This document shows, piece after piece, positions 1-64,000 of a DNA stretch of 64,000 nucleotides. The translations under genes and the position numbers were made by a program. Under the pieces are notes generated by a model, which had not been told where the DNA came from, searched no databases, and saw nothing but the letters and a program-made list of their open reading frames with translations. The first letter of the stretch is position 1. Every line of letters begins with the position of its first letter. Origin of the DNA: Planctomycetota bacterium (GTDB taxonomy: Bacteria; Planctomycetota; Planctomycetia; Pirellulales; UBA1268); NCBI GenBank assembly GCA_018970785.1, contig JAGWVR010000006.1, forward strand, positions 1,022 to 65,021, read 5' to 3'.

Positions 1-380
1 GAGCCGTCGGCACCGACGGGAAACCACTGCGCGGTGACCACGTAGTGGCCGGCCGGGGCACCGTCGCCGTCGCGGTAGGTGCTCACCGTGAACGTGCCGT
101 CGGCCTTGACGACCGCGCTGGGGAGGCCGTCGCGATCCTCCTGGTCGGGATCGGGATGGAAGATCAAATGGGCGCCGACGGCCGGTTTGCCGCCGAACTC
201 GGCGGAGCCGGTGACGGGATGGGTCTGGCGATGATTGCCGCCCCCCCACCCACAGCCGCCCGACGAGGCCAAAAGGAGAGCGAAGACGACGCCGAGTCGG
301 AGTTTCGGCAGGGCGTGGGGTGGTGGTGCGACCCGGCGGGATCGCGACCGACGGTGGGCGACGGACGGGGCGGGGATCAT
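1..380 (-). CDS. Planctomycete lipoprotein (carboxypeptidase-regulatory-like/transthyretin-fold type that often accompanies DUF1559 genes); runs off the window start
   Basis: Not in the ORF track; translated by hand. ATG at 380 follows AGGAG. It reads ...RLGVVFALLLASSGGC GWGGGNHRQTHPVTGSAEFGGKPAVGAHLIFHP...SAVVKADGTFTVSTYRDGDGAPAGHYVVTAQW: a lipobox-like Cys plus the PVTG..GKP / DG.F / DGAPAG.Y.V pattern. Confidence 0.75.
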   Translation of the reverse strand, partial: MIPAPSVAHRRSRSRRVAPPPHALPKLRLGVVFALLLASSGGCGWGGGNHRQTHPVTGSAEFGGKPAVGAHLIFHPDPDQEDRDGLPSAVVKADGTFTVSTYRDGDGAPAGHYVVTAQWFPVGADG

Positions 381-476
381 CGGCGGACTCCTGGGAGCCG
401 TCGCGGTCCTCCGGTTCTTCCGGTCAGTGCGGGGCGGGGCGATCAGTTCAGGGACGATGCCTAGGAACGGGGACGG

Positions 477-674
477 TCAACGCGAAAAACGGATCTTCTC
501 GGTCCGCTCGACCTGGACGACGACTCCGTCCTGGACGATCGCCAGCACGGAGCCGAAGCGGATGCCACGCAGCGCGTCGGCGATCCTCCGCAGAGCGGCG
601 TCGGTGGCGGGGGGAACGCCGCCGGTCTCTCCGTCGGGGCGGGAGGCTTCGGGGTGGTCGGACGGGACGGTCAT
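477..674 (-). CDS. YezD/DUF2292 (OscA-like) small sulfur-starvation-associated protein
   Basis: LRGIRFGSVLAIVQDGVVVQVERTEKIRF is the family signature; lies directly after cysA. Confidence 0.85.
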   Translation of the reverse strand: MTVPSDHPEASRPDGETGGVPPATDAALRRIADALRGIRFGSVLAIVQDGVVVQVERTEKIRFSR

Positions 675-692
675 GGCCGCGGTTCCTCGGGG

Positions 693-1766
693 TCAGATCA
701 CGTAGTCGTGGTCGACGGGAAATACCCGCGCGGTCCGCGGCGTGATCCGCACGGTTTCCCCCGGCCGCAGGCCGAGATCGCGCGCCCGATCCGACGGCAG
801 GTCGACCTGCACCGGTTCATCGGCCCCGGCGGGGCGGCAGGCCACGCGGGTGACGGCTCCGCCGGGGGCGATCCGCAGCACTTCGGCGCTCAGGCTGGCG
901 CCGTCGGTGGCGGAACCGGAGCGGTGGATGTCGAGCTCGTGGGGGCGGAGGTAGACGCGCGCGGCGCGCGGCCCGGCAACGCCGGCGCTCCCCGCGACCG
1001 GGATCGGGATCCCGTGCCAGAACGCGCGCCCGTTCTCGATCCGGCCGTGGAACAGGTTGACCGTCCCGAGGAAGTCCATCACGAACGGTGTCGCGGGCCG
1101 GTCGAAGACCTCGTCCGGAGCCCCCCGTTGCTCGATCCGGCCCTGATTCATCACCACCACCTCGTCGGCCAGCTCGAACGCCTCCTCCTGGTCGTGTGTC
1201 ACGAATACGCTGGTCATCCCGATCTCGTCGTGGAGTCGCCGCAGCCATTGGCGCAGTTCGACCCGCACCTTGGCGTCGAGGGCCCCGAACGGCTCGTCGA
1301 GGAGGAGGATCCGCGGGCGGATCGCCAGCGCCCGCGCCAGCGCCACCCGCTGCCGCTGCCCGCCGGAGAGCTGGGCGGGGCGCCGGCCACCGAGCCCTTC
1401 GAGCCGCACGAGGCGGAGGAGCTCGTCGACGCGCCGCGTCACTTCGGCGCGGGCGACGCGGCGGATCCGCAGCCCGAAGGCCACGTTCTCGAACACACTC
1501 ATGTGGCGGAACAGCGCGTAGTGCTGGAACACGAAGCCCACGCCGCGAGCCCGGGCGTGCCGGTCGGTGACGTCGGTGCCGTCCTCGGTGATCGTGCCGC
1601 TGTCGGGCTGCTCGAGACCGGCGATCACACGCAGCAGCGTCGTCTTGCCCGATCCCGATGGCCCGAGCAGGGCGACGAGCGCCCCGTCGGCGATCTCGAG
1701 GGACACGCGGTCGAGGGCCCGGAAGGAGCCGAAGGCCTTGGACACGTCACGGACATGGATGCTCAT
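693..1766 (-). CDS. cysA: Sulfate ABC transporter ATP-binding protein
   Basis: [13 protein letters not shown] start; Walker [25 protein letters not shown]-terminal TOBE-like region; ATGA overlap with cysW. Confidence 0.95.
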
Positions 1767-2659
1767 CGTTGCCCGGCCCCCTCCGCTGCAGTGCCGTCGG
1801 CCGCGCGGGCAGCCTGGCGCTCGCGTGCCTCGGCCTCGACGCGGCGTTCGATCACGTATTTCGCCACCAGCGTCACCAGCGCCAGCCCGGCGAGGACGCT
1901 TGCCACCGCCATCGAGGCCGGCTGGCGGTATTCCTGGAAGAGCTTCTCCACCCGCAGCGGCATCGTGTCGGTGACCCCGGCGATGTGGCCACTGACCACC
2001 GAGACGGCGCCGAATTCCCCCAGTGCCCGGGCGTTGGCCAGGACGACGCCGTGGAGCAACGCCCAGCGGATGTTGGGGAGCGTGACCCGGGTGAAGACCT
2101 GCCAGCCGTTGGCCCCGAGGCTGACGGCGGCCATCTCTTCCTCGGGGCCGATCGACTCCATCACCGGAAGCACCTCGCGCACCACCAGCGGCAGGGTGAC
2201 GAACGTCGTCGCCAGCACGAGACCCGGCCAGGAGAAGATCACCTTCCACCCGAGGGCCGCCAGTGTCGGCCCGAGCAGCCCCTGGCGACCGAAGATCAAC
2301 ACCAGTGCCAGGCCCGCGACCACCGGCGACACGGAGAACGGGAGGTCGAACAGCGCCACCAGCAGCGATCGGCCGGGGAAGCGGAACCGGGCCACGAGCC
2401 ACGCCGCGGCGATGCCGAACACCGTGTTGAAGGCCACTGCCACCGGCGCCACCGTCAACGACAGCCAGATCGCGTGGCGGGTGTCGGCGTCGTGGGCGAG
2501 CGTCGCCCACCAGGCGCCGAAGCCGCCAGAAAAAGCCTCGAGGAACACGCTCGCCAGCGGCACGACCACCAACACGCCGACGATCCCCCAGGCTGCCGCC
2601 ACCAACGCCACGTTGCCGGAGCGCGTCGTCGCGGTGATCGGGGAAGCGGGCCTGGACAT
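1763..2659 (-). CDS. cysW: Sulfate ABC transporter permease CysW
   Basis: [23 protein letters not shown] (EAA loop), [18 protein letters not shown]. Confidence 0.93.
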
Positions 2660-4888: not shown

Positions 4889-6496
4889 ATGATCCAACCA
4901 ACCCCCGGCTCCATCGAGTCCGATCCGCTCGCTGCGGTGTGGCGCGAAACCGGCCGGCACCTCGAGATCGCCACCGCGGTCGCCGCCATCGCCGACGTGC
5001 TCGTCGGCAGGTTTCCGCTGACCGGCATCCATCTGGTGCGGCTGGTCGCTGAATCGCACGGCTGCGAAGTCGTCGCCAGTGCCGGATCGGTGGGTGCCAA
5101 CCCGCCGGGTGCCCCGGCCGTCGCCCTGGCTCCAGCGCCCTGGCGGCGGCTCGTGGCCTGGGTGCGGAGCGGCGCGGTGTCCGGCACCGACGAGGAAGCG
5201 GTCGCTCCACTCGTCGCGGCCACCCGGCCGGAACGCGGCGGCGTGGCCGGCGGGCTGTGCGGCGTCGATGGCCCGATCGGTGCGGTCGTATTCGTGCCGG
5301 CGCCGGGCGCGGCGTTCTCCGCGGCCGATCGGGCGCTGGTCGCCCGGCTCCTCGAGCCGTTCGCGGTGGCGCTGGAGAACGACGCCCGCCTCCACGAGCT
5401 GCGCTCGCTGCGCCAGGCGGCCGAGGCCGATCGGCGCTCGCTGCTGTCGCGGCTCGGCCGCCAGGAGATCGCCGAGGATGTCGTCGGCGCCCGCACCGGG
5501 CTGCGGCACGTGATGGAGCGGGTCGAGCTGGTCGCCCGCTCCGACGTCCCGGTGCTGATCCTCGGCGAGACCGGGACCGGCAAGGAGGTGGTCGCCCGGG
5601 CGATCCACACCCGCTCGAAGCGCGCCGACGGGCCGTTCATCCGCGTCAATTGCGGGGCGATCCCGCCGGAACTGGTCGACTCGCAGCTCTTCGGCCACGA
5701 GAAGGGGAGCTTCACCGGGGCCGCCGACCAGCACCAGGGATGGTTCGAGCGCGCCGACCGTGGCACGCTGTTCCTCGACGAGATCGGCGAACTACCCCTG
5801 CCCGCGCAGGTCCGCCTGCTCCGCGTGCTCCAGGACCATCAGATCGAGCGCGTCGGCGGCAAGGCACCGGTGCGGGTCGACGTGCGGATCGTCGCCGCCA
5901 CCCACCGCGATCTCGCCGCGATGGTCACCGAGCGCTCGTTCCGCGAGGATCTCTGGTACCGGATCAACGTTTTCCCGATCCTCCTTCCCACCCTCCGCGA
6001 ACGCCGCGAGGACATCCCGGCACTCGTCCGTCACTTCGCCCACCGGGCGGCGGTGCGGTTCGGCCTTCCCGAGGTCGACCCGACCAGCGCCGACCTCCTG
6101 CTGCTCGGCGAATATGACTGGCCAGGCAACATCCGTGAGTTGGGCGCGGTGATCGACCGGGCGGCGATCCTCGGGGGAGGACGGCGGCTCGACGTGGCGG
6201 CGGCGCTGGGGCTGGGAAGGCGTCCGCCGCCGCCGGCACCGGCCACCGATCCGACGCTGTTCGAGGTCGTCCCCGAGGGGGTGCCACCTGCGTCCGCCGC
6301 CGAGCCGGCTCCGTCCGCGGCCGACATCGTCCCCTTGGCCGTGGCGATGCGCCGCCACGTCGAGCGGGCTTTGGCAGCGACGCGCGGGCGGATCGAGGGC
6401 CCGCGCGGCGCCGCGGCGCTGCTCCAGATCAATCCCCACACGCTCCGCGCCCGGATGCGGAAGCTGGGGATCGACCCGGGCCGGTTTCGGGAGTGA
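4889..6496 (+). CDS. sigma54-dependent enhancer-binding protein (GAF-like N-terminus, AAA+, Fis HTH; FhlA/HyfR-like)
   Basis: GETGTGKE, HEKGSFTGA (GAFTGA variant), LFLDEIG, FREDLWYRIN, WPGNIREL, GAAALLQINPHTLRARMRKLGI; start may be 4868-4889. Confidence 0.93.
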   Translation: MIQPTPGSIESDPLAAVWRETGRHLEIATAVAAIADVLVGRFPLTGIHLVRLVAESHGCEVVASAGSVGANPPGAPAVALAPAPWRRLVAWVRSGAVSGTDEEAVAPLVAATRPERGGVAGGLCGVDGPIGAVVFVPAPGAAFSAADRALVARLLEPFAVALENDARLHELRSLRQAAEADRRSLLSRLGRQEIAEDVVGARTGLRHVMERVELVARSDVPVLILGETGTGKEVVARAIHTRSKRADGPFIRVNCGAIPPELVDSQLFGHEKGSFTGAADQHQGWFERADRGTLFLDEIGELPLPAQVRLLRVLQDHQIERVGGKAPVRVDVRIVAATHRDLAAMVTERSFREDLWYRINVFPILLPTLRERREDIPALVRHFAHRAAVRFGLPEVDPTSADLLLLGEYDWPGNIRELGAVIDRAAILGGGRRLDVAAALGLGRRPPPPAPATDPTLFEVVPEGVPPASAAEPAPSAADIVPLAVAMRRHVERALAATRGRIEGPRGAAALLQINPHTLRARMRKLGIDPGRFRE

Positions 6497-6514
6497 CGCA
6501 CCCCGCCACCGCGC

Positions 6515-7858
6515 TCACGCGGCCGGTGCGGCGGCCGGCTGCTTCTTTTTCTGGTTGGCCGGCTTGTCGCGCGCCGACGGCGGCGCCTGCTCGGCGTTCC
6601 AGGCGTCGTAGAGCTTCTGGAGCTCGGCAACCTTCGCCGGCTCGGCGGCTGCACGGTCGCGCTGCTCGCCGACGTCGCTCGACAGGTCGTAGAGCTCGGG
6701 CTTGCCGCTGCCCCCCTTGGAGACCACGAGCTTCCAGTCCCCCTTCCGAACCGCCCACTGCTCGCCGCAGCGCCAGTAGAGGGTCTCGTGGGGGCGTCCG
6801 GGCGCGCGGCCGGTCAGGTGGGGGAGGATGTCGACGCCGTCGAGACGCGCTGCCGCGTCGACGGGCTTCCCGGCGGCGGCGAGCACGGTGGGGACGACGT
6901 CGAGGTTCATCACCGGCAGGTCGTAGACCTTGCCCGCCGGCAGCGTCCCCTTCCACTTCACGAGGAACGGCACGCGCGGGCCCCCTTCGAACGTCGTCAT
7001 CTTGAAGCCGCGGAGCGGGCCGTTGCCCGACGTCGTCCCGGCGGTCGGGCCGCCGTTGTCGGCGATGAACCAGACCAGCGTGTTCTCCTCCTGGCCGAGG
7101 GCCCGGACCGTCTCCAGGACGCGGCCGATCGCGTCGTCCATCGCCGACATCATCGCCGCGAACGTGCGCCGCTTCCCCTCGGGGATCGCGGCGAACCGGT
7201 CGAGATACTTCTGCGGGGCCTCGAGCGGCGCGTGCTGGGCGTTGAACGGGAGGTAGAGGAACCACGGCTCCCCCTTGCGGTCCTTCAGCCATTCGACGGC
7301 GCGCTGGGCGTAGGCCTCGGTCGTGTAGAAGGCGGGATCGTCGACCGGCACGACCTCCGTCGAGCGGCGCGAGTCGATGAACTGCTTGGGATGGAAGAAC
7401 GGCGTGTTCCCCAGCGTGCCGTAGAACTGGTCGAAACCCCGCGCGGTCGGCAGGTAGGGAGGCTTGCCGCCGAGGTGCCACTTGCCGATGCACACCGTGG
7501 CGTAGCCGAGCGCCTTGAGGCGCGTGGCGAGCGTCGTCTCGTCGAGGTGCAGGCCGGTCTGCTGGGCGACGGCGTTGAACTCGTGGCCGAAGCGCGTCGG
7601 GTAGCGGCCGGTGAGGAGGCCGGCGCGCGACGGGCTGCAGTAGGTGGCGGCGACGTAGCCCTGCGTGCAGCGCACGCCGTCGCGGGCCAGCGAGTCGATG
7701 TGCGGCGTGGGGATCTCGCGGTTCCCCTGGCAGCCGAGCTCGCCCCAGCCGAGGTCGTCGGCGTAGATCACCAGCACGTTGGGCGGGGCGGCCGTGGCCG
7801 TTCGGGCCGCGACCAGATACGCCGACAGCGACAGCAGGATCCACGGCACGGCGCGCAT
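6515..7858 (-). CDS. Secreted type I (formylglycine-dependent) sulfatase
   Basis: Signal peptide, PNVLVIYADDLG, CSPSRAGLLTGR, GKWHLG, DNGG; GGAGG RBS before the ATG at 7858. Confidence 0.93.
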   Translation of the reverse strand: MRAVPWILLSLSAYLVAARTATAAPPNVLVIYADDLGWGELGCQGNREIPTPHIDSLARDGVRCTQGYVAATYCSPSRAGLLTGRYPTRFGHEFNAVAQQTGLHLDETTLATRLKALGYATVCIGKWHLGGKPPYLPTARGFDQFYGTLGNTPFFHPKQFIDSRRSTEVVPVDDPAFYTTEAYAQRAVEWLKDRKGEPWFLYLPFNAQHAPLEAPQKYLDRFAAIPEGKRRTFAAMMSAMDDAIGRVLETVRALGQEENTLVWFIADNGGPTAGTTSGNGPLRGFKMTTFEGGPRVPFLVKWKGTLPAGKVYDLPVMNLDVVPTVLAAAGKPVDAAARLDGVDILPHLTGRAPGRPHETLYWRCGEQWAVRKGDWKLVVSKGGSGKPELYDLSSDVGEQRDRAAAEPAKVAELQKLYDAWNAEQAPPSARDKPANQKKKQPAAAPAA

Positions 7859-8048
7859 GATCGACCTCCGGCGGAGACTTCTCAATTTCTGGCAGCCCCG
7901 CTAAGGTACGCAAACCTTGCGGGGTTCCGTCAACCGAAACCCTGAACCGGGCGACACCAGCGCCCGTCGACAATCCGTTTTTCCGCGTCGCTGACCGGTC
8001 GACTTGGAGGCACGCCCGCGCCGCTCCCCTGGGGAGCGGGAGGTGCCC

Positions 8049-12097: not shown

Positions 12098-13947
12098 GCG
12101 CCCGGCCCGCCGAGGGGCGGAGCGGGAGCGAGCGCGGCCGCCGGCCGGGGCACGGTGGCCGTGGGTGCGGTCGCCCGGGCACCGTACGGCCAGATCAACG
12201 GCGCCAGAGCCACCGTGACCGCCATCACGAGGAGGTTGAGCGGTCCGCCGAAGCGCAGGTAGTCGGAAAACCGGTAGCCGCCCGGGCCATAGATCATGAG
12301 GTTGGTCTGGTAGCCCATCGGCGTCGCGAAGCCGCAGCTGGCGGCGACCGTGATCGCCATCACGAACGGCAGCGGATTGACGCCGAGGTCCGCCGCCGCC
12401 TGCCAGGCGATCGGGAACACGAGCACCGCCGCGGCGTTGTTGCTCATCAGCTCGGTGAACAGCATCGCCACGAGGTAGACGGCCGCCAGCACGGCGGTCG
12501 GATTCGATCCGGCGGCCGCGATCGTTCCCTGCGCCAGTGCCGCGGCCACGCCGGTCTTCTCCAGCGCCCGGGCGAGACCGAAGCTGGCGGCGATCAGCAG
12601 CAGCGATTCCCACTCGATCGCCCGCCGCGCCTCGCCGGCGGAGATGCAGCGCGTGGCGATCACGACGCCGGCGGCGACCAGCGCGGCGGCGACCATCGGC
12701 ACCAGATCGGTGGCGGCGGCGAGGACCATCGCCACCAGCACGCCCCCGGCGATCCAGGCGCGGTCGTGCCGCGGGGGCTGGGCGCCGGCGATCTCGCTGA
12801 CGAGGTAGAAATGACGCCGCGAGCGTTGGCGCTCGAGGAATCCGGGGCTCGCCTCGAGGAGGAGCGTGTCGCCCGGCTCGAGGACGATGTCGCCGAGCTT
12901 CCCCTGGAGCCGCTCGCCGTTGCGGGCCACGGCGATCACCACCGCGTCGTAGGCGGTGCGGAAACGGCCGTCGCGGATCGACAGACCGACGACCGGGCAG
13001 GCCGGCGAGACGACCGCCTCCACAAGCACGCGCTCGCTGCGCGGCCCGTCGAGCTGGAACACCTGGTCGGTGGCGGGGCGCAGGCCGCGGATCTTCTGCA
13101 GCTCGACGACGCTGTCGATCACGCCGACGAACACCAACCGGTCGCCGGCCTCGAGGCGTTCGCTGGGGGCGACCGCGGCGAGCACGTGGCCGGCCCGGTC
13201 GATCTCCATGAGGAACAGGCCGTCGAGGCCGCGGAGCCCCGCCTCCTCGATCGTCCGCCCCACCAGCGCGCTGGCGGGATCGACCTCCATCTCGACCGAA
13301 TACTGGCGCGGGTCGTCGGCCTCGCTGATCGCCGGGCGCCGGTCGACGAGGAGGTGCCGGCTGGCGACGAGCAGGTAGACGAATCCCGCCGCCAGCAGCG
13401 GCACGCCGAGCCAGGAGATGTCGAACATCCCCATCGGCTCCCCGGTCTTGGCCTTGAGCAGGCCGCTGACGACGACGTTGGTGCTCGTGCCGATCAGCGT
13501 GCACAGACCGCCGAGGACGACCGCGGCGTTCATCGGCATCAGCAGCTTCGACACACTGAGCCGGTGCTTGGCGGCCCAGGTGCGGATCGCCGGCACCATC
13601 AGGGCGACGACGGGGGTGTTGTTCATGAACGCCGACACCAGCGCCGGCCCGGCCATCGTGCGGAACTGCGCCGCTTCGAGCGACTTCGGCCTGCCGAGCA
13701 CCCGGTCGACGACCAGCGCCAGGGCGCCGGTGCGCTCGACCGCCGCGGCCACCACGAACAGCGCCGCGACGGTGATCATCCCCTCGTTGGCCATGCCCTT
13801 GAGGGCCTCGTCGGGGGTGAGGACCCCGGCGGCGAGGAGCACCACCACGCCGCCGATCATCGCCATGTCGGGGGCGCGCTGTGCCGACGAGAGCAGCACC
13901 AGCGTGACGATGACGACCGCCGCGGTGAGGAGGCTCTGCCAATCCAC
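12034..13947 (-). CDS. SLC13/DASS family anion permease with TrkA-C domains (possible sulfate permease)
   Basis: SAFMNNTPVV, LGGLCTLIGTSTNVVV, two TrkA-C-like repeats, TELMSNNAAA, FATPMGYQTNLMIYGPGGY; GTG start estimated. Confidence 0.88.
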   Translation of the reverse strand: MDWQSLLTAAVVIVTLVLLSSAQRAPDMAMIGGVVVLLAAGVLTPDEALKGMANEGMITVAALFVVAAAVERTGALALVVDRVLGRPKSLEAAQFRTMAGPALVSAFMNNTPVVALMVPAIRTWAAKHRLSVSKLLMPMNAAVVLGGLCTLIGTSTNVVVSGLLKAKTGEPMGMFDISWLGVPLLAAGFVYLLVASRHLLVDRRPAISEADDPRQYSVEMEVDPASALVGRTIEEAGLRGLDGLFLMEIDRAGHVLAAVAPSERLEAGDRLVFVGVIDSVVELQKIRGLRPATDQVFQLDGPRSERVLVEAVVSPACPVVGLSIRDGRFRTAYDAVVIAVARNGERLQGKLGDIVLEPGDTLLLEASPGFLERQRSRRHFYLVSEIAGAQPPRHDRAWIAGGVLVAMVLAAATDLVPMVAAALVAAGVVIATRCISAGEARRAIEWESLLLIAASFGLARALEKTGVAAALAQGTIAAAGSNPTAVLAAVYLVAMLFTELMSNNAAAVLVFPIAWQAAADLGVNPLPFVMAITVAASCGFATPMGYQTNLMIYGPGGYRFSDYLRFGGPLNLLVMAVTVALAPLIWPYGARATAPTATVPRPAAALAPAPPLGGPGAQPAAIPATTSASRSISAGVL

Positions 13948-55356: not shown

Positions 55357-56772
55357 ATGGCCACGCGTCGTTCCCGTTCCAGCGCCTCCCGTCGTGACTT
55401 CATCGCCACCGGTGCCACCGGTGCCGGAGCGCTGGCCGGCATCGCCGGTGGCGTGTGGATCGCTCCCGAGGTCCGCGCCGACGACAAGCCGGCGACGAGC
55501 GCCAACTCCGAGATCCGCTTCGCCTGCATCGGCATCGGTGGCAAGGGGCAGAGCGATTCGGCCGACGCAGCCCGCAACGGCAAGGTGGTCGCGGTCGCCG
55601 ACGTCGACAGCAACCAGTTGAAGCGCGGCGAGAAGGCCTTCGAGGGGGCGAAGACGTTCCAGGACTACCGGAAGATGCTCGCCGAGGTCGGCAAGGAGAT
55701 CGATGCCGTCACCGTCAGCACGCCCGACCACACCCACTTCGCCGCGGCGATGATGGCGATGGGGATGGGGAAGCACTGCTTCTGCCAGAAGCCGCTGACC
55801 CGGGCGATCTCCGAGGCGCGGCTGATGGGTGAATTGGCCCGCGCCAAGAAGCTCGCCACGCAGATGGGCAACCAGGGCACCGCCGAGAGCTCGCTGCGGA
55901 AGGCGGCCGCGTTCATCAAGTCGGGAGGGTTGGGCACGGTCAAGGAACTGCACGTTTGGACCAACCGGCCGGTCTGGCCGCAGGGCGGGGGGCGCCCGGC
56001 GGAGGCTCCGGTTCCCGCCAACCTCGACTGGAATCTCTGGCTCGGCCCGGCGCCGGTCCGGCCCTACGGCACCGGCTACCACCCCTTCAGCTGGCGTGGC
56101 TTCTGGGATTTCGGCACCGGTGCGCTCGGCGACATGGCCTGCCACACCTTCAACATGCCGTTCATGGCGCTCAACCTCCGCGACCCGTCGAGCGTCCAGG
56201 CGCTGACCAGCGGCCACAACAAGGAGACCTATCCGAAGTGGTCGATCATCGACTTCGATTTCCCGACGATCGGAGCCCGACCGGGGTTGAAGGTGGTGTG
56301 GTACGACGGCGGCAAGCTCCCCGAGGAGGGTTTGTTCGCCGGCTTCCCCGGTGAGACCAAGAAGGACGCCGACGGAAAGGAGGAGACACTGCCGTTCAAG
56401 ACCGCCTCGAGTGGCATCCTCTGCATCGGCGACAAGGACACGCTCTACGCTCCCGGCGACTACTGTGAGAAGGGCTTCAAGCTCAAGAGCGGCAAGGCAC
56501 CCGCCGACGCCGAGTTCACGCCGTCGCCGGGCCATTTCATCGAATGGGTCAACGCCATCAAGGGTGGCCCGCAGCCGATGTCGAACTTCCCCGACTACGC
56601 CGGGCCGCTCACCGAGACGATCCTGCTGGGGAACCTCGCGGTCTGGGCCGCCGACGTGGCGGAAACCAAGGGGAAGAAGATCGAGTGGGATCCGGTGAAG
56701 TTGGTCGCCAAGAACGCCCCCGAGGTGGAGGCGATCATCCGGCCGACCGCACGCGATGGCTGGTCGGCCTGA
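55357..56772 (+). CDS. Tat-exported Gfo/Idh/MocA family oxidoreductase
   Basis: SRRDFI Tat motif, IGIGGKG, STPDHTH, CQKPL, GALGDMACH. Confidence 0.92.
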   Translation: MATRRSRSSASRRDFIATGATGAGALAGIAGGVWIAPEVRADDKPATSANSEIRFACIGIGGKGQSDSADAARNGKVVAVADVDSNQLKRGEKAFEGAKTFQDYRKMLAEVGKEIDAVTVSTPDHTHFAAAMMAMGMGKHCFCQKPLTRAISEARLMGELARAKKLATQMGNQGTAESSLRKAAAFIKSGGLGTVKELHVWTNRPVWPQGGGRPAEAPVPANLDWNLWLGPAPVRPYGTGYHPFSWRGFWDFGTGALGDMACHTFNMPFMALNLRDPSSVQALTSGHNKETYPKWSIIDFDFPTIGARPGLKVVWYDGGKLPEEGLFAGFPGETKKDADGKEETLPFKTASSGILCIGDKDTLYAPGDYCEKGFKLKSGKAPADAEFTPSPGHFIEWVNAIKGGPQPMSNFPDYAGPLTETILLGNLAVWAADVAETKGKKIEWDPVKLVAKNAPEVEAIIRPTARDGWSA

Positions 56773-56818
56773 GCCGACCGGCCGGCGGACGCAGGGATCG
56801 AGGAGTGAAGGAGGGGCT

Positions 56819-58117
56819 GTGACACGCGACGGTGGAACTGGCTCGCGGTCTGCGCTCGTGACGCGGCGTGGAGCAACGCTGATCGTGGCGCTGGCCCTCG
56901 CGGCCGGCGGCGCCCCGGCCCGGGCCCTGGAGCCCCTCCCTGCGGAGGCCGCCGCCGTCGCGCTGGTCAAGTCGCGCGGCGGGAGCGTCGAGTACGGGAC
57001 CGACGGCCGGGTGACGAAGGTGAACCTCGCCAACCGGCCCGCCACCGATGCCGACCTCCGTGTCCTCGGCACGCTCCCGGGTCTGCAAGCGCTCGAGGTC
57101 TGGGGCGCCGAGATCGGCGATGCCGGCATGCCCGCGCTGGCGGCGATCGGATCGCTGCAGCAGTTGGTCCTCGAGAACACCGACGTCACCGACACCGGCA
57201 TCGGGGAACTGGCGAAGCTGCGGAACCTCAAGATCCTCAACCTCCGCCGCAGCTCGAACCTGTCCGATGCGGCGCTCGAGACCGTGGCGAAGCTCACCGG
57301 CCTCGAGCAACTCGTCCTGCTCTACAACAATTTCACCGATGCCGGGCTGGCCCATCTCCTGCCTCTGACAAAGCTCCGCGTGCTCGATCTGCGCGGTTGC
57401 TCGCTGATCGGCGACGCGGGGCTGGAGCACGTCGCCGGGATGACGAGTCTGGAGCGGGTCAAGCTCCGCTGCCCCGGGGTCACCGACCGCGGTCTGGCGG
57501 CGATCGCCCGGCTGCCGAAGCTCCGCGGGTTCGCCGCCGAGGACGGCCAGATCACCGACGCCGGACTGGCGCCGTTCGCCACCAAGGGGGACATCGACGA
57601 GATCAACGTGATGCGGACGTTCATCGGCGGCGACGGGCTCGCCCATCTCAAGGGGCTCGGCAAGCTCAAGCGCCTCGAGCTGCGCGGCACGCTGATCGAC
57701 GACGCAGCGCTCGTCCACGTCGCCGGCCTCACCAATCTCGTCCTCCTCGACCTGGCGGAGACGGGGATCGGCGACGCCGGTGTCGCCCACCTCGGCCGAC
57801 TCGAAAAGCTCGCCGACCTCGACCTGTGGGACACGAAGGTCGGCGACGAGGGGCTGACCACGATCGGTCGGCTGCCGGCCCTCACCAAGCTGGTGCTGCG
57901 GAACACCCGCATCACCGACGCGGGGCTCGGGCGACTGACCGGTTCGACGAAGCTGGCCACGCTCGACCTGGCCGGCACCAAGGTCGCCGGACCGGGCCTG
58001 GCGGCGGTGGGACGGCTGCCGGCGCTGCGGGCCCTCGACCTCAGCTTTGCACCGGTCAGCGACGATGCCCTGGCGGCTCTCCGCGCGGCCCGTCCTGAGA
58101 TCGTCGTCACGAAGTGA
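56819..58117 (+). CDS. Secreted leucine-rich repeat protein
   Basis: Signal peptide, then about 14 repeats of ~24 aa (L..L.L..T.(I/V)TDAGL..L). Confidence 0.88.
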   Translation: MTRDGGTGSRSALVTRRGATLIVALALAAGGAPARALEPLPAEAAAVALVKSRGGSVEYGTDGRVTKVNLANRPATDADLRVLGTLPGLQALEVWGAEIGDAGMPALAAIGSLQQLVLENTDVTDTGIGELAKLRNLKILNLRRSSNLSDAALETVAKLTGLEQLVLLYNNFTDAGLAHLLPLTKLRVLDLRGCSLIGDAGLEHVAGMTSLERVKLRCPGVTDRGLAAIARLPKLRGFAAEDGQITDAGLAPFATKGDIDEINVMRTFIGGDGLAHLKGLGKLKRLELRGTLIDDAALVHVAGLTNLVLLDLAETGIGDAGVAHLGRLEKLADLDLWDTKVGDEGLTTIGRLPALTKLVLRNTRITDAGLGRLTGSTKLATLDLAGTKVAGPGLAAVGRLPALRALDLSFAPVSDDALAALRAARPEIVVTK

Positions 58118-58382: not shown

Positions 58383-59132
58383 ATGATCCTCGGCAAGCTG
58401 TGGAAGGCGATGGCCGCCCAGGTCAACAAGATCGCCAATTTTTTCTGGACGGCCGATCCGATCGCGCAACTGCAGTACGAATACGACAAAGCGGTCGATC
58501 AGATGAAGGAGGGGCGCGAGGGGCTGGAGCAGTACCGGGCCCTCGTCGAGCGGGTCGCTCGGCAGGTCGAGGGTGACCGCCAGCATGTCGCCAAGCTCGA
58601 GGCGCAGGTCAAGGCCTACCTCCAAGCCGGCGAGCGCGAGACGGCGGCGAAGTTCGCGCTCGAATTGCAGCGCGTCCGCAAGGACCTCGAGGAGAACGAG
58701 GCCCAGCTCAAGCTCCACGAGACCGCCTATGGCAACAACGTCACCAAGGTCAAGCACGCCTCGAAAAAGCTCGCCGACCTCAAGCACAAGATCCAGAAGT
58801 ACGACGCCGACCTGAAAATGTCGCGGGCCGAGGCGGAGCTGGCGAAGCTCGCCACGACCTTCAAATTCGACGTCACCACCGACTTCGGCCAGATCGAGGA
58901 CGTGATCCAGGACAAGATCGGGCTCAACCGCGCGAAGGTCCGCGTCGCCGCCGACCTGTCCGGCGAGGGGCTCGACAAGATCAAGGACGAGCAGCGTGTC
59001 GAGGCGCAGATGGCCGACGCGGCCCTCCGTGAGTTCGAGCGCGAGTTGGGGATGGTGACTCCCGAGACGTCGAAGGTCACGGACGACGAGAAGCTGCTCG
59101 GGTCCGAACGGCTCCGACAGATCTCAGGCTGA
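58383..59132 (+). CDS. PspA/IM30 (ESCRT-III superfamily) protein
   Basis: Amphipathic N-terminal helix ILGKLWKAMAAQVNKIANFF ending in DP, long coiled coil, AGERETAAKFAL, C-terminal DAALREFERELG; GGAG RBS. Confidence 0.8.
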   Translation: MILGKLWKAMAAQVNKIANFFWTADPIAQLQYEYDKAVDQMKEGREGLEQYRALVERVARQVEGDRQHVAKLEAQVKAYLQAGERETAAKFALELQRVRKDLEENEAQLKLHETAYGNNVTKVKHASKKLADLKHKIQKYDADLKMSRAEAELAKLATTFKFDVTTDFGQIEDVIQDKIGLNRAKVRVAADLSGEGLDKIKDEQRVEAQMADAALREFERELGMVTPETSKVTDDEKLLGSERLRQISG

Positions 59133-59328
59133 GGCGCCCCGTTCGCCACGGCGACGCCCCCGGCTTTTCCGTGGAGACCGTGGCGGCCAGCCTGGCGACG
59201 GATCGTGCAGCCCATCGGTGGCCGTGCCCCGTCCGGTCGGCGTGGCCCGTACCCCATGCGACCGACGGTCCGGCGTCAGTGGGACCCATGGCCAGACGAG
59301 GCGTGCGCCCGGGCGCACGGAAAGTGCC

Positions 59329-61266
59329 GTGAACGACGATTCATCGAGGGCGTCGGCGATCGGAGGCTCTCCGGCCCACCGGGACCGCCTCCCCGCCGAT
59401 ACCGGCGCCGCGCCGGCCGCCAATGGCCAGCGGACCGGGCTGGGCACCGGGACCCGTCCCGGCGGTGCCCTGCCTGATTGGTGTCCGTCGTGGGCGGAGC
59501 GGCTCGGCGACGCCTACCTGTCGGGCACGAGTTGCGTCTTCCTGGTGCATGGCAACGTCCGCGATCTGGTGCCGCTCGGCCCCGAGTCGGCGGCGACGAC
59601 GACACCTGCGGCCGATCCGGCGGCGGCTTTCGGAACCGTCGGTGACTTCCTCGCCCGCGAGGTCTTCGGCAGCTGGGACGTGGTCCTGGCCTACGACGTC
59701 GGCAAGGGGCTGCGGCCGTTGGCCGGATCCGATCCGTCGCGGTTGCGCACGATGGTGCAATGGCTTTCCGAGCGGCTCGGCAACGCCTCGGCCTGGCCGC
59801 GCGAGCCCGATGCCGCCCTGGCCGCGATCGACGCGATCCTCGACCGGAATCTCACGGATCCTCCCGAGCAGCGCAAGAAGATCGCCGTCTTCCTCGACCA
59901 TGCCCAGTACCTCGTGCCCGACGGCGATACCGCGAGCGCCTCGCGCGGTACCGCCGGCAGGCTCGTCCGGGTCGTCGGCTGGGCGACCAATCCACTGCTC
60001 CGTCGTGTCAACGTCGCGATCGTGCTGCTCGCCGAGACGATGGCCGAGGTCCACCCGCGTCTCGTCACCAATCCGGCGGTGACTGCGATCGAGGTGCCGC
60101 TCCCAGACGCCGACGAACGGCGCCGCTTCGCCCTGGCCACCGCGAGTGCCGTGGGCGTGCCGGCCGGACAGATGGACGCCGTCGAGCGCATGGCGAAGCT
60201 CTCCGCCGGCCTCTCGCTCGAGAGCATCAGGGCGATCGTCACGCTGTCGGCGCGGGAGGGCACGGCGCCCGACGGAGCCGAATTCGGCGCCAAGAAAAAG
60301 GATCTCATCGAGCGGTCGTGCCGGGGGCTGATCGAGTTCATCCAGCCACGCCTGACGCTCGACAACGTCGCCGGTCACGAGGCCGCGAAGGCACGCCTCG
60401 AGGCCGATGCCAAGGCGATCCGTCGTGGCCAGCTCGATGCCGCACCGATGGGCTACCTGATCTGCGGGCCGGTGGGTACCGGCAAGAGCTTCATCGCCGA
60501 GTGCTACGCCGGCAGCGTCGGGATCCCGTGCGTGGAGTTGAAGAACTTCCGCAGCAAGTACGTCGGCGAGACCGAGGGCAATCTCGAGCACGCCCTCGGC
60601 GTGCTCCGCAGCCTCGGCCCGGTGGTGGTGATCATCGACGAGGCCGATGCGGCCCTCGGCAACCGTGAGTCCGGTGGTGACTCAGGAACCAGCGCCCGGG
60701 TGTTCTCGATGATCGCCCGGCAGATGGGAGACACCCGCTACCGCGGCAAGATCGTCTGGATGCTCCTCACCAGCCGCCCTGATCGCCTCCCCATCGACCT
60801 CAAGCGACAGGGGCGGGCGGAGGTCCACATTCCCCTCTTCTATCCACACGATCAGGCTGAGATGGAGGCGATGTTCCAGGCGATGGCGCGGAAATGCCGC
60901 GTGAAGCTGGCGCCGGGCCTGCCGGGGCCGGTGGATCTCGAACTCGGCCTGTCCGGGGCCGACATCGAGAGCATCGTCCTGGCGGCGCGCCGCAAGGGGC
61001 TCGAGCGCGCCGCCGCCGCTGCCGAGGAAGGGCGACCGGCTCCCGGCGGCGACGAGATCGGCGTTGCCGATTTCCAGGAGGCACTCACCGACTTCCTTCC
61101 CTCGGCGCAGGGCTTGGAGAAGGAAGCCCAGGAGATCGCCGCCGTCCTCGAATGCACCGAAAAGCGCTTCCTGCCCGAGCGCTGGCGCGAAGCCGTCAGC
61201 CGCCCCGGCGGGCGCGCCGACCTGCAGGAGCGGATGGCTGAGCTGCGCGACATGGCGGGCACCTGA
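59329..61266 (+). CDS. Classical-clade AAA+ ATPase with degenerate N-terminal AAA-like domain
   Basis: GPVGTGKS, pore loop SKYVGETE, IIDEAD, TSRPDRLPIDLKRQGR (SRH), LSGADIE; N-terminal half FLVHGNVRD lacks a Walker A; start uncertain. Confidence 0.88.
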   Translation: MNDDSSRASAIGGSPAHRDRLPADTGAAPAANGQRTGLGTGTRPGGALPDWCPSWAERLGDAYLSGTSCVFLVHGNVRDLVPLGPESAATTTPAADPAAAFGTVGDFLAREVFGSWDVVLAYDVGKGLRPLAGSDPSRLRTMVQWLSERLGNASAWPREPDAALAAIDAILDRNLTDPPEQRKKIAVFLDHAQYLVPDGDTASASRGTAGRLVRVVGWATNPLLRRVNVAIVLLAETMAEVHPRLVTNPAVTAIEVPLPDADERRRFALATASAVGVPAGQMDAVERMAKLSAGLSLESIRAIVTLSAREGTAPDGAEFGAKKKDLIERSCRGLIEFIQPRLTLDNVAGHEAAKARLEADAKAIRRGQLDAAPMGYLICGPVGTGKSFIAECYAGSVGIPCVELKNFRSKYVGETEGNLEHALGVLRSLGPVVVIIDEADAALGNRESGGDSGTSARVFSMIARQMGDTRYRGKIVWMLLTSRPDRLPIDLKRQGRAEVHIPLFYPHDQAEMEAMFQAMARKCRVKLAPGLPGPVDLELGLSGADIESIVLAARRKGLERAAAAAEEGRPAPGGDEIGVADFQEALTDFLPSAQGLEKEAQEIAAVLECTEKRFLPERWREAVSRPGGRADLQERMAELRDMAGT

Positions 61267-61350
61267 GCCACGCCCGCGAAGCACCGACGCCGTTCCGCCC
61301 GTCGAGACCGTTTTCCCGTTGGCCGATCCGAAACCCCCGAGGAGTTCACC

Positions 61351-61656
61351 ATGGCCCGTGGTTCCAGCCCCAGCACCCCCTGGTTCGACGCCACCACCGA
61401 GGCGCCGCTGCTGCAGGAGTACGCGCGGAAGCTCGACTCGTTCGTCGACGCGGTCGCCGACGGGCGTGTCGATTCGAAGGAAGTCGAGGACCAGGAGAAG
61501 CGGCTCGTGGCCCTGATGAAGGAGGTCGAGCCACTCCTCTCCCCCGAGGCCCACGAGAAGGTGACCAAGCTGCTGTGCGAGGTCACGGCCTACGACCTGA
61601 TGAACATGCTTCACATGGCGGGCCGGGCGCGGCCGCGGACCCGGTTTCAGGGTTGA
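61351..61656 (+). CDS. Small alpha-helical hypothetical protein
   Basis: GAGGAG RBS; 101 aa; in operon between the AAA ATPase and the SBP-OmpA fusion. Confidence 0.8.
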   Translation: MARGSSPSTPWFDATTEAPLLQEYARKLDSFVDAVADGRVDSKEVEDQEKRLVALMKEVEPLLSPEAHEKVTKLLCEVTAYDLMNMLHMAGRARPRTRFQG

Positions 61657-61700
61657 TCTGACGGCGGTCACGATCCGGTCGGTTTTTCACGAGGGACACG

Positions 61701-63470
61701 ATGGCGAACGAACCCAAGGCTCCGTTCTGGCTGGCGGTGTGGGCGGTGATCCTCGGACTGGTCGCCCTGGCCGCGTGGCGGGCCGGGATGTTCGGCGACC
61801 GCCCCGTGCCGGCGCCGCGTGCCGCCCCGATGGCCGGGGGGCCCGGCCCGGGCGGTGGTGGACCGGCGCCGGGGGGGGACGGTGGGAGCGGCACCGAGGG
61901 GCCCATGTCCGAGGCCCCCGACGTCGCCGTGCCCACAACCGTGAAGGAATACACCTTCAAGCCCGCCGAGCGCCTGCCGCCGGTGAAGGGGGTCAGCGCC
62001 TACAAGCCGCTGGAAAACGACACCGTCCGCTTCGCCCTCAACGTCTGGGCCGGTTGGAGCCCGATCATCCTCGCCAACGACGGCTTCAAGCCGGGCAAGG
62101 TCTGGCAGGCGCCGGGGGGGCGTCCGTTCAAGGTCGAGCTGGTGCTGATCGACGACCCTGTCCAGATGCGGGATGCCTACGCGGCCGGTGAGGTCCACGT
62201 CGGCTGGGCGACGCTCGACATGCTGCCGTTGTTCGTCGACAGCTTCGCCAAGGATTCGCGGATCATGCCGCGCGTCTACCAGCAGGTCGACTTCTCCAAC
62301 GGTGGCGACGGGATCGTCGTCCGCGACACGATCAAGACGGTCAAGGATCTCGCCGGCAAGAAGCTCGTGATGGCGCAGAACTCGCCGAGCCAGTTCTTCG
62401 CCCTCAACATGCTCGTTGCCGGCGGGCTGCAGCCGGCGGACGTGGAGATGATCTACGTCACGACGGCGTTCGAGGCCGCCGCCGCCTTCAACCGCGACAA
62501 GAGCATCGCCGGTTGTGTGTCGTGGGCCCCGGACATCTACAACCTCGCCGAAGCCAAGGGCAACCGGATGCTGGTCACGACCAAGACCGCCAACCGGCTG
62601 ATCGCCGACGTCTGGTTCGCCCGGGCGGACTTCGCCAAGGATCACCCCGACAAGGTCGAGGCCCTCGTGCGCGGCATCTTCGACGCGATGAGCGAGCTGA
62701 ATCGCGAAGATGTCCGGGCCCGCGTCGCCCAGCTGATGGCCGACGGGTACACGATCCCGGCCGCCGACGCGCTGTCGATGCTCGGCGATGCCCACTCGAC
62801 CAACTGGGCCGAGAACTACCAGTTTTTCCTCAACCGCAACAATCCCGCCAATTTCGAGCGGATCTGGAAGCAGGCTTACTACCTGTACCGGAAGGTCGGG
62901 GCGATCTCCAACAATCCCGTGCCGTTCGATCAGGTGATGGATTTCTCGGTCCTGCAGAAACTCGGTACCGAGCCGAAATACGCCGAGACCAAGGACGAGT
63001 ACACCGCCGTGGTGCAGCCGCGGTCGGTCGGCCAGATCCGTGCCGAGAACGACGAGATCCTCACCAACACGATCGTCATCAAGTTCTTCCCGAACAGCTC
63101 CGAACTGCGGAAGACGGTGATCAAGAAGATCGACGGGAAGGACGTCGAACAGCCCTACGATCCGCGCGTCGACCTCGTACTCGACGAGGTGGCAGCCCTG
63201 GCGAAGCAGTTCGGCAACGCCCGGATCGTGATCGAGGGGCACACCGACAGTTCGATGAAGGGGGCCGTGCCGGCGGCGATGGTCAAGGAATTGTCGTTGC
63301 AGCGCGCCCGGGCGGTGAAGGAGGCGATCGTCGAGAAGTTCGACCTCGACGATAACCGCTTCGCCGTCGATGGCCTCGGCTGGGATCGGCCGGCCGACGA
63401 CGACCATCCCGACGACCATGCCCTCAACCGTCGCGTGGAGATCAAGGTGTACTCCGCGGAGAAGGAATGA
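61701..63470 (+). CDS. Membrane-anchored NMT1/TauA-like solute-binding protein fused to an OmpA-like peptidoglycan-binding domain
   Basis: N-terminal TM, Gly/Pro linker, WAGWSPIILAN, DFSNGGDGIVV; C-terminal F.PNSSEL, IEGHTDS, LSLQRARAV, NRRVEIKV. Confidence 0.88.
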   Translation: MANEPKAPFWLAVWAVILGLVALAAWRAGMFGDRPVPAPRAAPMAGGPGPGGGGPAPGGDGGSGTEGPMSEAPDVAVPTTVKEYTFKPAERLPPVKGVSAYKPLENDTVRFALNVWAGWSPIILANDGFKPGKVWQAPGGRPFKVELVLIDDPVQMRDAYAAGEVHVGWATLDMLPLFVDSFAKDSRIMPRVYQQVDFSNGGDGIVVRDTIKTVKDLAGKKLVMAQNSPSQFFALNMLVAGGLQPADVEMIYVTTAFEAAAAFNRDKSIAGCVSWAPDIYNLAEAKGNRMLVTTKTANRLIADVWFARADFAKDHPDKVEALVRGIFDAMSELNREDVRARVAQLMADGYTIPAADALSMLGDAHSTNWAENYQFFLNRNNPANFERIWKQAYYLYRKVGAISNNPVPFDQVMDFSVLQKLGTEPKYAETKDEYTAVVQPRSVGQIRAENDEILTNTIVIKFFPNSSELRKTVIKKIDGKDVEQPYDPRVDLVLDEVAALAKQFGNARIVIEGHTDSSMKGAVPAAMVKELSLQRARAVKEAIVEKFDLDDNRFAVDGLGWDRPADDDHPDDHALNRRVEIKVYSAEKE

Positions 63471-64000
63471 GCGACACCGTCGTCCGTGACGCCATGCCCC
63501 GGCCCCCCGCGGCGCCGCTGCGCGGCGAGACGACGGTGGCGATGGCGGCGTTGTGGGGGGTGACCAGCCTCGCGCTGGTCGCCGCGCTGTGGTTCCTCGC
63601 CACCGCCGGCGAGGCGGAGAGCCGGTTCATCGGGCCGGCCACGCTCCCCAGCCCGACCGAGACGGTCAGCGCCGCGCCGCGCGTGTTCGGCGAGGGGCGG
63701 CTCCCCACCAACACCGCCGTGACGCTCAAGCGCGTTGTGCTCGGCTTCGGACTGGCGGCCGCCGTCGGCGTGCCGCTCGGGGTGTTGGCGGCCTGCTTCG
63801 CGGAGCTGCGGGCGTTCCTCGCGCCGCTGACGATCTTCGGCCGCAACATCCCGGTCGCGGCCCTGATCCCGCTGACGTTCTTCTTCTTCGGCATCGGCGA
63901 GCTGCAGAAGGTGATGTTCCTGTTCATCGCCTGCGTCGCGTTCGTCGTCAGCGACACGACCGCCGCGGTCCGCGAGGTCCCGCAGCGCTACGTCGACACC
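63467..64000 (+). CDS. NitT/TauT family ABC transporter permease (truncated at window end)
   Basis: Hand translation from the ATGA overlap: LPSPTET, TLKRVVLGFGLAAAVGVPLG, RNIPVAALIPLTFFFFGIGELQKVMFLF. Confidence 0.88.
   Translation, partial: MSDTVVRDAMPRPPAAPLRGETTVAMAALWGVTSLALVAALWFLATAGEAESRFIGPATLPSPTETVSAAPRVFGEGRLPTNTAVTLKRVVLGFGLAAAVGVPLGVLAACFAELRAFLAPLTIFGRNIPVAALIPLTFFFFGIGELQKVMFLFIACVAFVVSDTTAAVREVPQRYVDT

Follow-up and report, generated by a model that had tools for sequence, protein, structure and literature searches.

A conserved PspA-tandem AAA ATPase gene cluster in a planctomycete genome: a candidate bacterial counterpart of ESCRT-III and Vps4

Described systems and the planctomycete cluster

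That PspA and Vipp1 are bacterial relatives of ESCRT-III is now accepted, and what is at stake in the genes that accompany them is ATP-driven recycling of ESCRT-III outside archaea and eukaryotes, an idea that is itself not new. The closest described gene neighborhoods come from the survey of Ravi et al. (2024, mSystems; PMC11237479), section 18 of which reports that bacterial PspA is occasionally accompanied by a protein with tandem AAA+ domains, of which the N-terminal one is inactive. The longer operons listed in that part of the survey consist of PspA, Snf7 homologs with a transmembrane (TM) segment, the ATPase, an ABC ATPase, a permease, and a PBPB-OmpA protein, and comparative genomics is taken there to suggest ATP-dependent membrane remodeling comparable to that by Snf7/Vps4. 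Here we analyze a gene cluster of this kind from a Planctomycetota bacterium (genome of 3.38 Mb, 69% complete), located at the end of a stretch of 64,000 nucleotides (bases 1022-65021 of contig JAGWVR010000006.1; hereafter, the window), in which PspA is encoded next to a tandem AAA ATPase and a 101-aa protein that we denote p101.

From position 58383 to the end of the window, the plus strand carries five co-oriented genes, and the contig runs 2.3 kb past the window end, adding two more. The complete order on the contig is PspA, the tandem AAA ATPase, p101, a 589-aa protein that combines a solute-binding domain with OmpA_C (hereafter, SBP/OmpA), an ABC permease, an ABC ATPase, and p276, a 276-aa membrane protein with a coiled coil (Table 1). 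An earlier note, made from the letters of this DNA alone, had assigned the domains of the five genes and predicted that an ABC ATPase follows beyond the window; open reading frame (ORF) calling and family searches bear out the former, and the predicted ATPase was indeed found, with p276 as a further gene. Within the trio of transporter genes, neighbors overlap by 4 nt, the permease thus starting inside the SBP/OmpA gene, and the remaining intergenic gaps are 30-196 nt.

In gene content and proposed role, the cluster matches the longer operons of Ravi et al.: every component listed in the pertinent text was found here, including PspA beside a tandem AAA protein whose N-terminal module is inactive and whose C-terminal module is active. 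The differences are that p101, which is not mentioned in the main text of the survey, so far as it concerns these operons, is here as constant as PspA, and that the survey speaks of 'Snf7 homologs with a TM segment', whereas no Snf7 or PspA similarity was seen for p276, the TM coiled-coil protein encoded here, in profile, HMM, or fold comparison. The surmise of the earlier note that comparative surveys might already have recorded such neighborhoods was therefore correct, and both this kind of operon and its ESCRT-III/Vps4-like interpretation have already been published in silico. New here are the conserved PspA-ATPase-p101 core triad, a motif in the PspA tail, and the lack of support for a Snf7-like p276. 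The same note knew of no experimental characterization, and no experimental study of this ATPase was found in the full-text literature searched. According to the passage of a 2025 review that addresses this issue, a Vps4-like ATPase appears to be absent in bacteria, and PspA polymerization must be regulated otherwise (PMC7619361); the relevant part of Junglas et al. (2024; PMC11746142) names no possible remodelers of PspA other than PspF and chaperones. If bacteria possess a motor dedicated to PspA, the operon described here is, in our view, its best candidate at present.

The cluster also shares features with better characterized systems. As in the ESCRT-III/Vps4 systems (archaeal CdvB/CdvC, eukaryotic Snf7/Vps4), an ESCRT-III-superfamily protein is encoded beside a classical-clade AAA ATPase, and the latter contains the K-aromatic-hydrophobic-G pore loop of Vps4. 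Unlike Vps4 and CdvC, however, the ATPase consists of two AAA modules and lacks a MIT domain (no Pfam MIT match), and its score against the CdvC family is 49.8 bits, compared to the cut-off of 650 (NF041006). The Psp and Lia systems (E. coli PspFABC, B. subtilis LiaIH, and M. tuberculosis PspA-PspM) similarly pair PspA, as the effector, with a small membrane protein, but the AAA protein encoded here is of the unfoldase type, in contrast to the NtrC-type transcription activator of classical Psp.

PspA, the tandem AAA ATPase, and p101 as a constant core

To assess the conservation of the cluster, we examined 80 loci that contain the closest relatives of the ATPase in the genome collection (47-79% identity), retrieved with a 12-sequence alignment of this protein; greedy ORF calling yielded spurious antisense ORFs in such high-GC loci, and the counts do not rely on it. 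Where the left flank extends for 1 kb or more (74 loci), PspA was found in 69; p101, similarly, was found in 68 of the 74 loci in which the right flank reaches 500 nt or more. When at least 1 kb on the left and 7 kb on the right were both available (37 loci), all seven genes were found in 20 loci and the triad only in 9, the remaining 8 being intermediate. Within the 30 nearest loci listed (L054-L082 and L120), the ATPases are 69-79% identical.

The gene set can be kept while the gene order changes. In L035, L036, and L133 (the last labeled Myxococcales), the order is permuted to PspA-SBP/OmpA-permease-ABC-p276-ATPase-p101; in a set of 20 phylum-wide loci, the order of the window recurs in L034, and L043 and L045 differ again. 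Given that the set is kept through rearrangement, the evidence of functional linkage is strong: the genes make up a conserved, functionally linked module in which the PspA-ATPase-p101 triad is the constant core, whereas the transporter and p276 form an optional block beside it.

At a threshold of E<=1e-50, the ATPase was detected in 49 of the 301 sampled genomes of the window's phylum, and in 44 of 151 and 7 of 151 genomes from two other phyla, to which metagenome-assembled genomes labeled Myxococcales and Gemmatimonadales, respectively, belong. The module, accordingly, is not a planctomycete speciality, and the occurrence of the ATPase family in two other phyla weakens the rationale of the earlier note, which had connected the operon with the invaginated inner membrane of planctomycetes. 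Among cultured bacteria, the triad is carried by Singulisphaera sp. PoT (L124) and Aquisphaera insulae JC669 (L118). An unusual context was observed in L051 (G064:C3:25000-44000), where the remnant of a PspA (153 aa, truncated) and an ATPase homolog lie between two inverted 475-aa ORFs (6463-7890, minus strand, and 12108-13535, plus strand) with identical N-terminal 70 residues, giving the locus the look of a composite transposon.

The ATPase belongs to a large family, with 5266 homologs at E<=0.001 among 8000 scored candidates and 787 cluster representatives at E<=1e-30. Its longest ORF (682 aa) covers 59218-61266, but translation probably begins at the GTG at 59329, given that the closest homologs are ~644 aa long. 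The earlier note had described a tandem AAA+ protein with an intact C-terminal and a degenerate N-terminal module, and three lines of comparison agree with this description: the Pfam AAA family matches the C-terminal half (D2) only, with no AAA match in the N-terminal half (D1); D1 and D2 are nevertheless recognized as related by hhalign (probability 92.3%, E=5.5e-7); and the structural matches cover both modules. In an alignment of 46 diverse full-length sequences, D1 contains no GK[ST] at the Walker A position, and D78 is invariant; the N-terminal half is a degenerate AAA homolog without a P-loop. In D2 of the same sequences, Walker A (G379/G382/K385), the glycine of the pore loop (G412), the DE of Walker B (D436/E437), and the two arginines of the second region of homology (R492/R495) are invariant, and the motifs GP.GTGK[ST], K[WY]VG, and DEAD, along with the R492/R495 pair, are invariant or nearly so. 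On these sequence grounds, the protein is assigned to the classical clade of AAA ATPases, with all the catalytic and pore-loop motifs of D2 kept. Given the intact substrate-threading pore loop, unfolding or extraction of a protein client would be the expected chemistry.

Structure prediction places the ATPase near Cdc48. The AlphaFold2 model (pLDDT 89.6, pTM 0.86), in which residues 1-43 are disordered and D1 begins at about residue 50, has its best PDB matches in Foldseek to p97, Cdc48, Rix7, NVL, and Drg1 over 563-633 columns (E about 1e-19 to 1e-17), and VAT, Cdc48, and p97 rank first in the comparison of sequence profiles. The stacked D1-D2 arrangement is shared with both the Cdc48/p97/VAT and the Rix7/NVL/Drg1 proteins, but the N-terminal double-psi-barrel substrate/adaptor domain of Cdc48/p97/VAT is missing, as is the P-loop of D1, and the score of the ATPase against TIGR01243 is 59.1 bits, compared to the cut-off of 802.65. 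More generally, the NCBIfam scores for CDC48, CdvC, PAN, and FtsH (59, 50, 47, and 40 bits, respectively) are all far under the cut-offs. Taken together, the profile and model comparisons indicate a Cdc48-like type II AAA ATPase without the N-domain, which does not appear to be a member of the Vps4 family and would be Vps4-like at most by analogy. Four longer relatives (P0255, P0261, P0263, and P0273; 818-856 aa) possess an extra N-terminal region of 250-280 aa that matches no Pfam family in any of the four; an identity of this extension with p276 was rejected upon comparison of two of them. The first residues of the P0255 extension resemble the start of D1, and a third degenerate module may be present there.

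The 249-aa product of the first gene is likewise readily classified. It scores 51.3 bits against PF04012 (cut-off 33.9; E=1.6e-13), and a profile of its clade, built from nine operon-linked PspAs, matches only Vipp1 and PspA chains in the PDB (8 of 8), colinearly, with residues 1-213 aligned to 1-211. In agreement with the earlier assignment to PspA/IM30, the protein therefore belongs to the PspA/Vipp1 family; a GGAG lies 8 nt 5' of its ATG. The C-terminal tail contains a distinct motif (Table 1), of which L215, F218, G223, K237, and G240 are invariant in nine PspA sequences with identity down to 22%. The tail pattern occurs in 78 of 79 ATPase-linked PspAs, a count that is descriptive, given that the pattern was drawn post hoc from the nine sequences, and it is absent from the second PspA of this genome. 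We infer that the conserved tail is a candidate docking site for the ATPase. The second PspA-family gene (PF04012, 49.1 bits; contig C34:117353-120967, ORF 1468-2364, minus strand), the product of which has an N-terminal hydrophobic segment, is located directly upstream of a large membrane-protein ORF (1-1428, minus strand) that is SPFH/band-7-like as judged by eye only; the pair resembles another of the PspA contexts given by Ravi et al.

The third member of the triad, p101, has no Pfam or NCBIfam match and, in the Atlas, falls into unnamed planctomycete clusters only. It is a real, conserved gene, given its 452 homologs, the alignment of which reveals the motifs W[FL]D, ADG.h...E, LLCE.TAY, and, at the C-terminus, RPKT.F[RQ]G. 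The second of these motifs brought to mind TerB-like or EF-hand-like proteins, but no consistent Pfam family was recovered for 34 members at E<=5, and this candidate was dropped. A complex prediction for p101 and residues 44-644 of the ATPase yielded a score of 0.00, which counts neither for nor against an interaction. Searching 270 ATPase-family proteins with hidden Markov models (HMMs) of p101, p276, and PspA for Rosetta-stone fusions produced a single match, the apparent ATPase-p101 fusion P0290 (420 aa), which was rejected as spurious, being a frame-shifted, low-quality ORF. In a divergent subfamily of the operon without detected p101, mutually similar proteins of ~200-220 aa are encoded near the ATPase gene, just downstream of it in L041 (8662-9273) and L043 (10667-11320), and nearby in L045 (5353-6015); these may replace p101.

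A possible PspA motor and rival explanations

We suggest, at what we judge to be an even chance, that the ATPase extracts subunits from PspA polymers and is, by analogy, a functional counterpart of Vps4 acting on ESCRT-III. PspA, as a Vipp1/ESCRT-III-type protein, would assemble as a polymer on the cytoplasmic face of the inner membrane, and the tandem AAA protein would form a Cdc48-like hexamer, in which the ATP-dead D1 ring could be the docking platform, with the active D2 ring threading the polypeptide through its K[YW]VG pore loops. The client would most likely be PspA, engaged via the conserved C-terminal tail and probably docked through p101 or D1. By pulling subunits from PspA polymers, the ATPase would bring about their recycling or remodeling, that is, do the job of Vps4 with a differently built motor. 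Most likely, p101 would be a cofactor or adaptor of the ATPase, whereas p276 could be a membrane anchor or a second client. With OmpA_C tethering its binding protein to the wall, the ABC importer would be an optional add-on that imports a small solute and takes no part in distance measurement. Indeed, the proposal of the earlier note that the SBP-OmpA/ABC unit senses or fixes the membrane-to-wall distance found no support, the transporter module being dispensable as judged by the 9 of 37 well-flanked loci with the triad alone. As for the Vps4-type recycler of that note, the classical AAA module stands, and its pore loop is intact, but the enzyme is a Cdc48-like tandem without MIT, and PspA is its client with no better than the even chance given above. 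We are more doubtful of a further-reaching version, a three-part machine in which p101 or the dead D1 would read the PspA tail as MIT reads MIM, and a Vps4 equivalent would have evolved independently in bacteria from a different AAA lineage combined with a new adaptor family.

Several observations weigh against extraction of PspA by this ATPase. In Pfam and fold searches, the ATPase contains neither MIT nor any other known ESCRT-III-binding domain. Furthermore, PspA rods themselves bind and hydrolyze ATP, as described in the pertinent part of PMC11746142, and a motor is therefore not strictly required. Finally, the distant relatives of the ATPase are not always found beside PspA. A tblastn search of the 20 phylum-wide loci with the proteins of the window detected SBP/OmpA in 10 loci, p276 in 10, the ABC pair in 8, and p101 in 4, with PspA in 8, plus 1 fragment. 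When 10 of the 11 genomes without a tblastn PspA (G049 left out) were searched with PF04012, PspA was found directly upstream of the ATPase in one (G144) and a weak, sub-threshold match within the cluster in another (G034); six further genomes encode PspA exclusively on contigs other than that of the ATPase, and for two no PspA was detected. Two of the loci, L048 and L049, consist of SBP/OmpA-p276-ATPase, with no PspA by tblastn, although in the genome of L048 a weak PF04012 match within the cluster sits just upstream; because of these loci, p276 could be the client.

Alternatively, the ATPase could act on p276 or other membrane proteins, as Cdc48 and Msp1 do, with PspA only sealing or stabilizing the membrane. 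This explanation draws on the permuted loci, in which p276 is directly upstream of the ATPase (L035-L037, L041, L042, L044, L045, L048, and L049) and in three cases (L048, L049, and L037) is beside it with no tblastn PspA, as well as on the confident, all-helical model of p276 with two TM segments and the Cdc48-like architecture of the ATPase. We nevertheless regard it as unlikely: the 9 triad-only loci among the 37 contain neither p276 nor a transporter gene nearby, and the constant upstream neighbor in the window's clade is PspA (69 of 74), not p276. Decidedly improbable, in our estimate, is a co-regulated regulon of envelope or osmotic stress without physical coupling, comprising a solute importer, protection by PspA, and the AAA protein as a general chaperone. 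The triad persists without the transporter in those same 9 loci, the ATPase family is context-specific and highly conserved (69-79% identity), unlike a general chaperone, and the tail motif is confined to PspAs of the linked clade; these facts count for more, in our opinion, than the translational coupling of the transporter genes through their 4-nt overlaps, the gaps of 44-196 nt and the weak hairpin that set the triad apart, and the similarity of the binding protein to NitT/TauT-type families, all of which a regulon would accommodate. The dead D1 ring, as a possible binding platform, also brings up a role of the ATPase as a negative regulator or holdase that would bind PspA without threading it, by analogy with the inactive state of PspA in its complex with PspF in E. 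coli; in Proteobacteria, PspA does bind an AAA+ protein, PspF, according to the relevant passages of PMC7619361 and PMC11237479. However, the strong conservation of every catalytic and pore-loop residue of D2 points to active translocation, and the ATPase lacks a DNA-binding domain recognizable by Pfam, so that we give a holdase very little credence. Among these explanations, extraction of PspA subunits is the one that we prefer.

The optional block and the surroundings of the cluster

The coordinates of the genes and their parts are collected in Table 1; for the genes beyond the window, the numbering of the window is continued.

Table 1 Features of the PspA-ATPase-p101 cluster, in window coordinates
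Feature	Position	Strand	Basis or remark
PspA/IM30 family protein, 249 aa	58383-59132	+	PF04012; ESCRT-III superfamily by family membership
C-terminal PspA tail motif AL.EF....G[ML]....K.LG, aa 213-240	59019-59102	+	ATPase-linked PspAs
Tandem (type II, Cdc48-like) AAA ATPase, ~645 aa	59329-61266	+	model, Foldseek, homologs
D1, degenerate AAA module without P-loop	59479-60321	+	FL[LV]HGN.xD in place of Walker A
D2, classical AAA module	60334-61263	+	PF00004, E=6.9e-23
D2 Walker A	60466-60489	+	
D2 pore loop KYVG	60556-60567	+	
D2 Walker B DE	60637-60642	+	
D2 second region of homology (SRH) arginines	60805-60816	+	
p101, 101-aa helical protein	61351-61656	+	no known family; adjoins the ATPase gene downstream
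Weak terminator-like hairpin and T-run	61665-61691	+	between the triad (after p101) and the transporter genes
SBP/OmpA, 589-aa envelope protein	61701-63470	+	PF00691, E=5.9e-12; PF09084, E=2.6e-9; PF13379, E=4.2e-8
SBP/OmpA hydrophobic segment	61713-61796	+	
SBP/OmpA NMT1/SsuA-like domain	~62028-62774	+	
SBP/OmpA OmpA_C domain	~63177-63458	+	
ABC permease	63467-64396 (in the window, 63467-64000)	+	PF00528, E=2e-19
ABC ATPase	64393-65289 (beyond the window)	+	PF00005, E=7.5e-27
p276, 276 aa, two TM segments and coiled coil	65320-66150 (beyond the window)	+	no family

p276 combines a hydrophobic hairpin region (aa 25-55) with long helices (all-helical model, pLDDT 87.7). Its candidacy as a relative of ESCRT-III, Snf7, or PspM received no support from profile, HMM, or fold comparison. 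The hhalign probability of a relationship with the PspA clade is 3%; no Snf7 or PspA Pfam match was obtained for any of 11 members or in the search of its own genome, and no ESCRT-III protein is among the 46 PDB matches listed by Foldseek, which are generic helical bundles only (best E=0.14), with the proviso that both Foldseek and the Pfam Snf7 family are weak on long helical proteins and that no control genome reached the Snf7 cut-off. PF25587 (Rv2743c/PspM) did not match at E<=1 in the 11 members or at E<=10 in the genome itself; the sole support for a PspM label comes from the Atlas, where p276 is nearest to Rv2743c/PspM clusters (feature score 0.89).

The SBP/OmpA protein has a single hydrophobic segment (aa 5-32), which could be either an uncleaved anchor or a cleaved signal peptide, and a Pro/Gly-rich linker. 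Its OmpA_C domain, akin to those of the OmpA/Pal/MotB type, scores 46.2 bits, above the Pfam cut-off of 27.2, and is predicted to bind peptidoglycan. The binding domain resembles the NitT/TauT-type SsuA/TauA/urea families, but every NCBIfam match of the protein is below the cut-off, the equivalog scores being far below. Together with a TauC/SaoP-like permease and an ABC_tran ATPase, this SsuA/TauA-like protein makes up a set similar to the NitT/TauT-type ABC importers, from which it differs in the fusion of the binding domain to OmpA_C and in the N-terminal hydrophobic segment.

The closest relatives of the proteins and loci are labeled Planctomycetota, Pirellulales, or Planctomycetaceae, and the G+C content of the window is 63-75%. 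Upstream of the cluster, Pfam identifies a leucine-rich repeat (LRR) protein and a GFO/IDH/MocA oxidoreductase, neither of which is a psp or lia gene. The LRR protein (56756-58117), which has an N-terminal hydrophobic region, is encoded directly upstream of PspA in the same orientation, but we place it outside the cluster because none of the 20 related phylum-wide loci contains a counterpart. The claim of the earlier note that pspB/C/F and liaFSR are absent holds for these upstream genes and for PspB and PspC, both of which a search of the genome (69% complete) failed to detect; no genome-wide search was made for PspF and LiaFSR. The number of hairpins in the region is at the chance level (3 found, 3.1 expected), so that the one following p101 is a positional hint only; its position agrees with a modular division of the cluster into triad and transporter genes.

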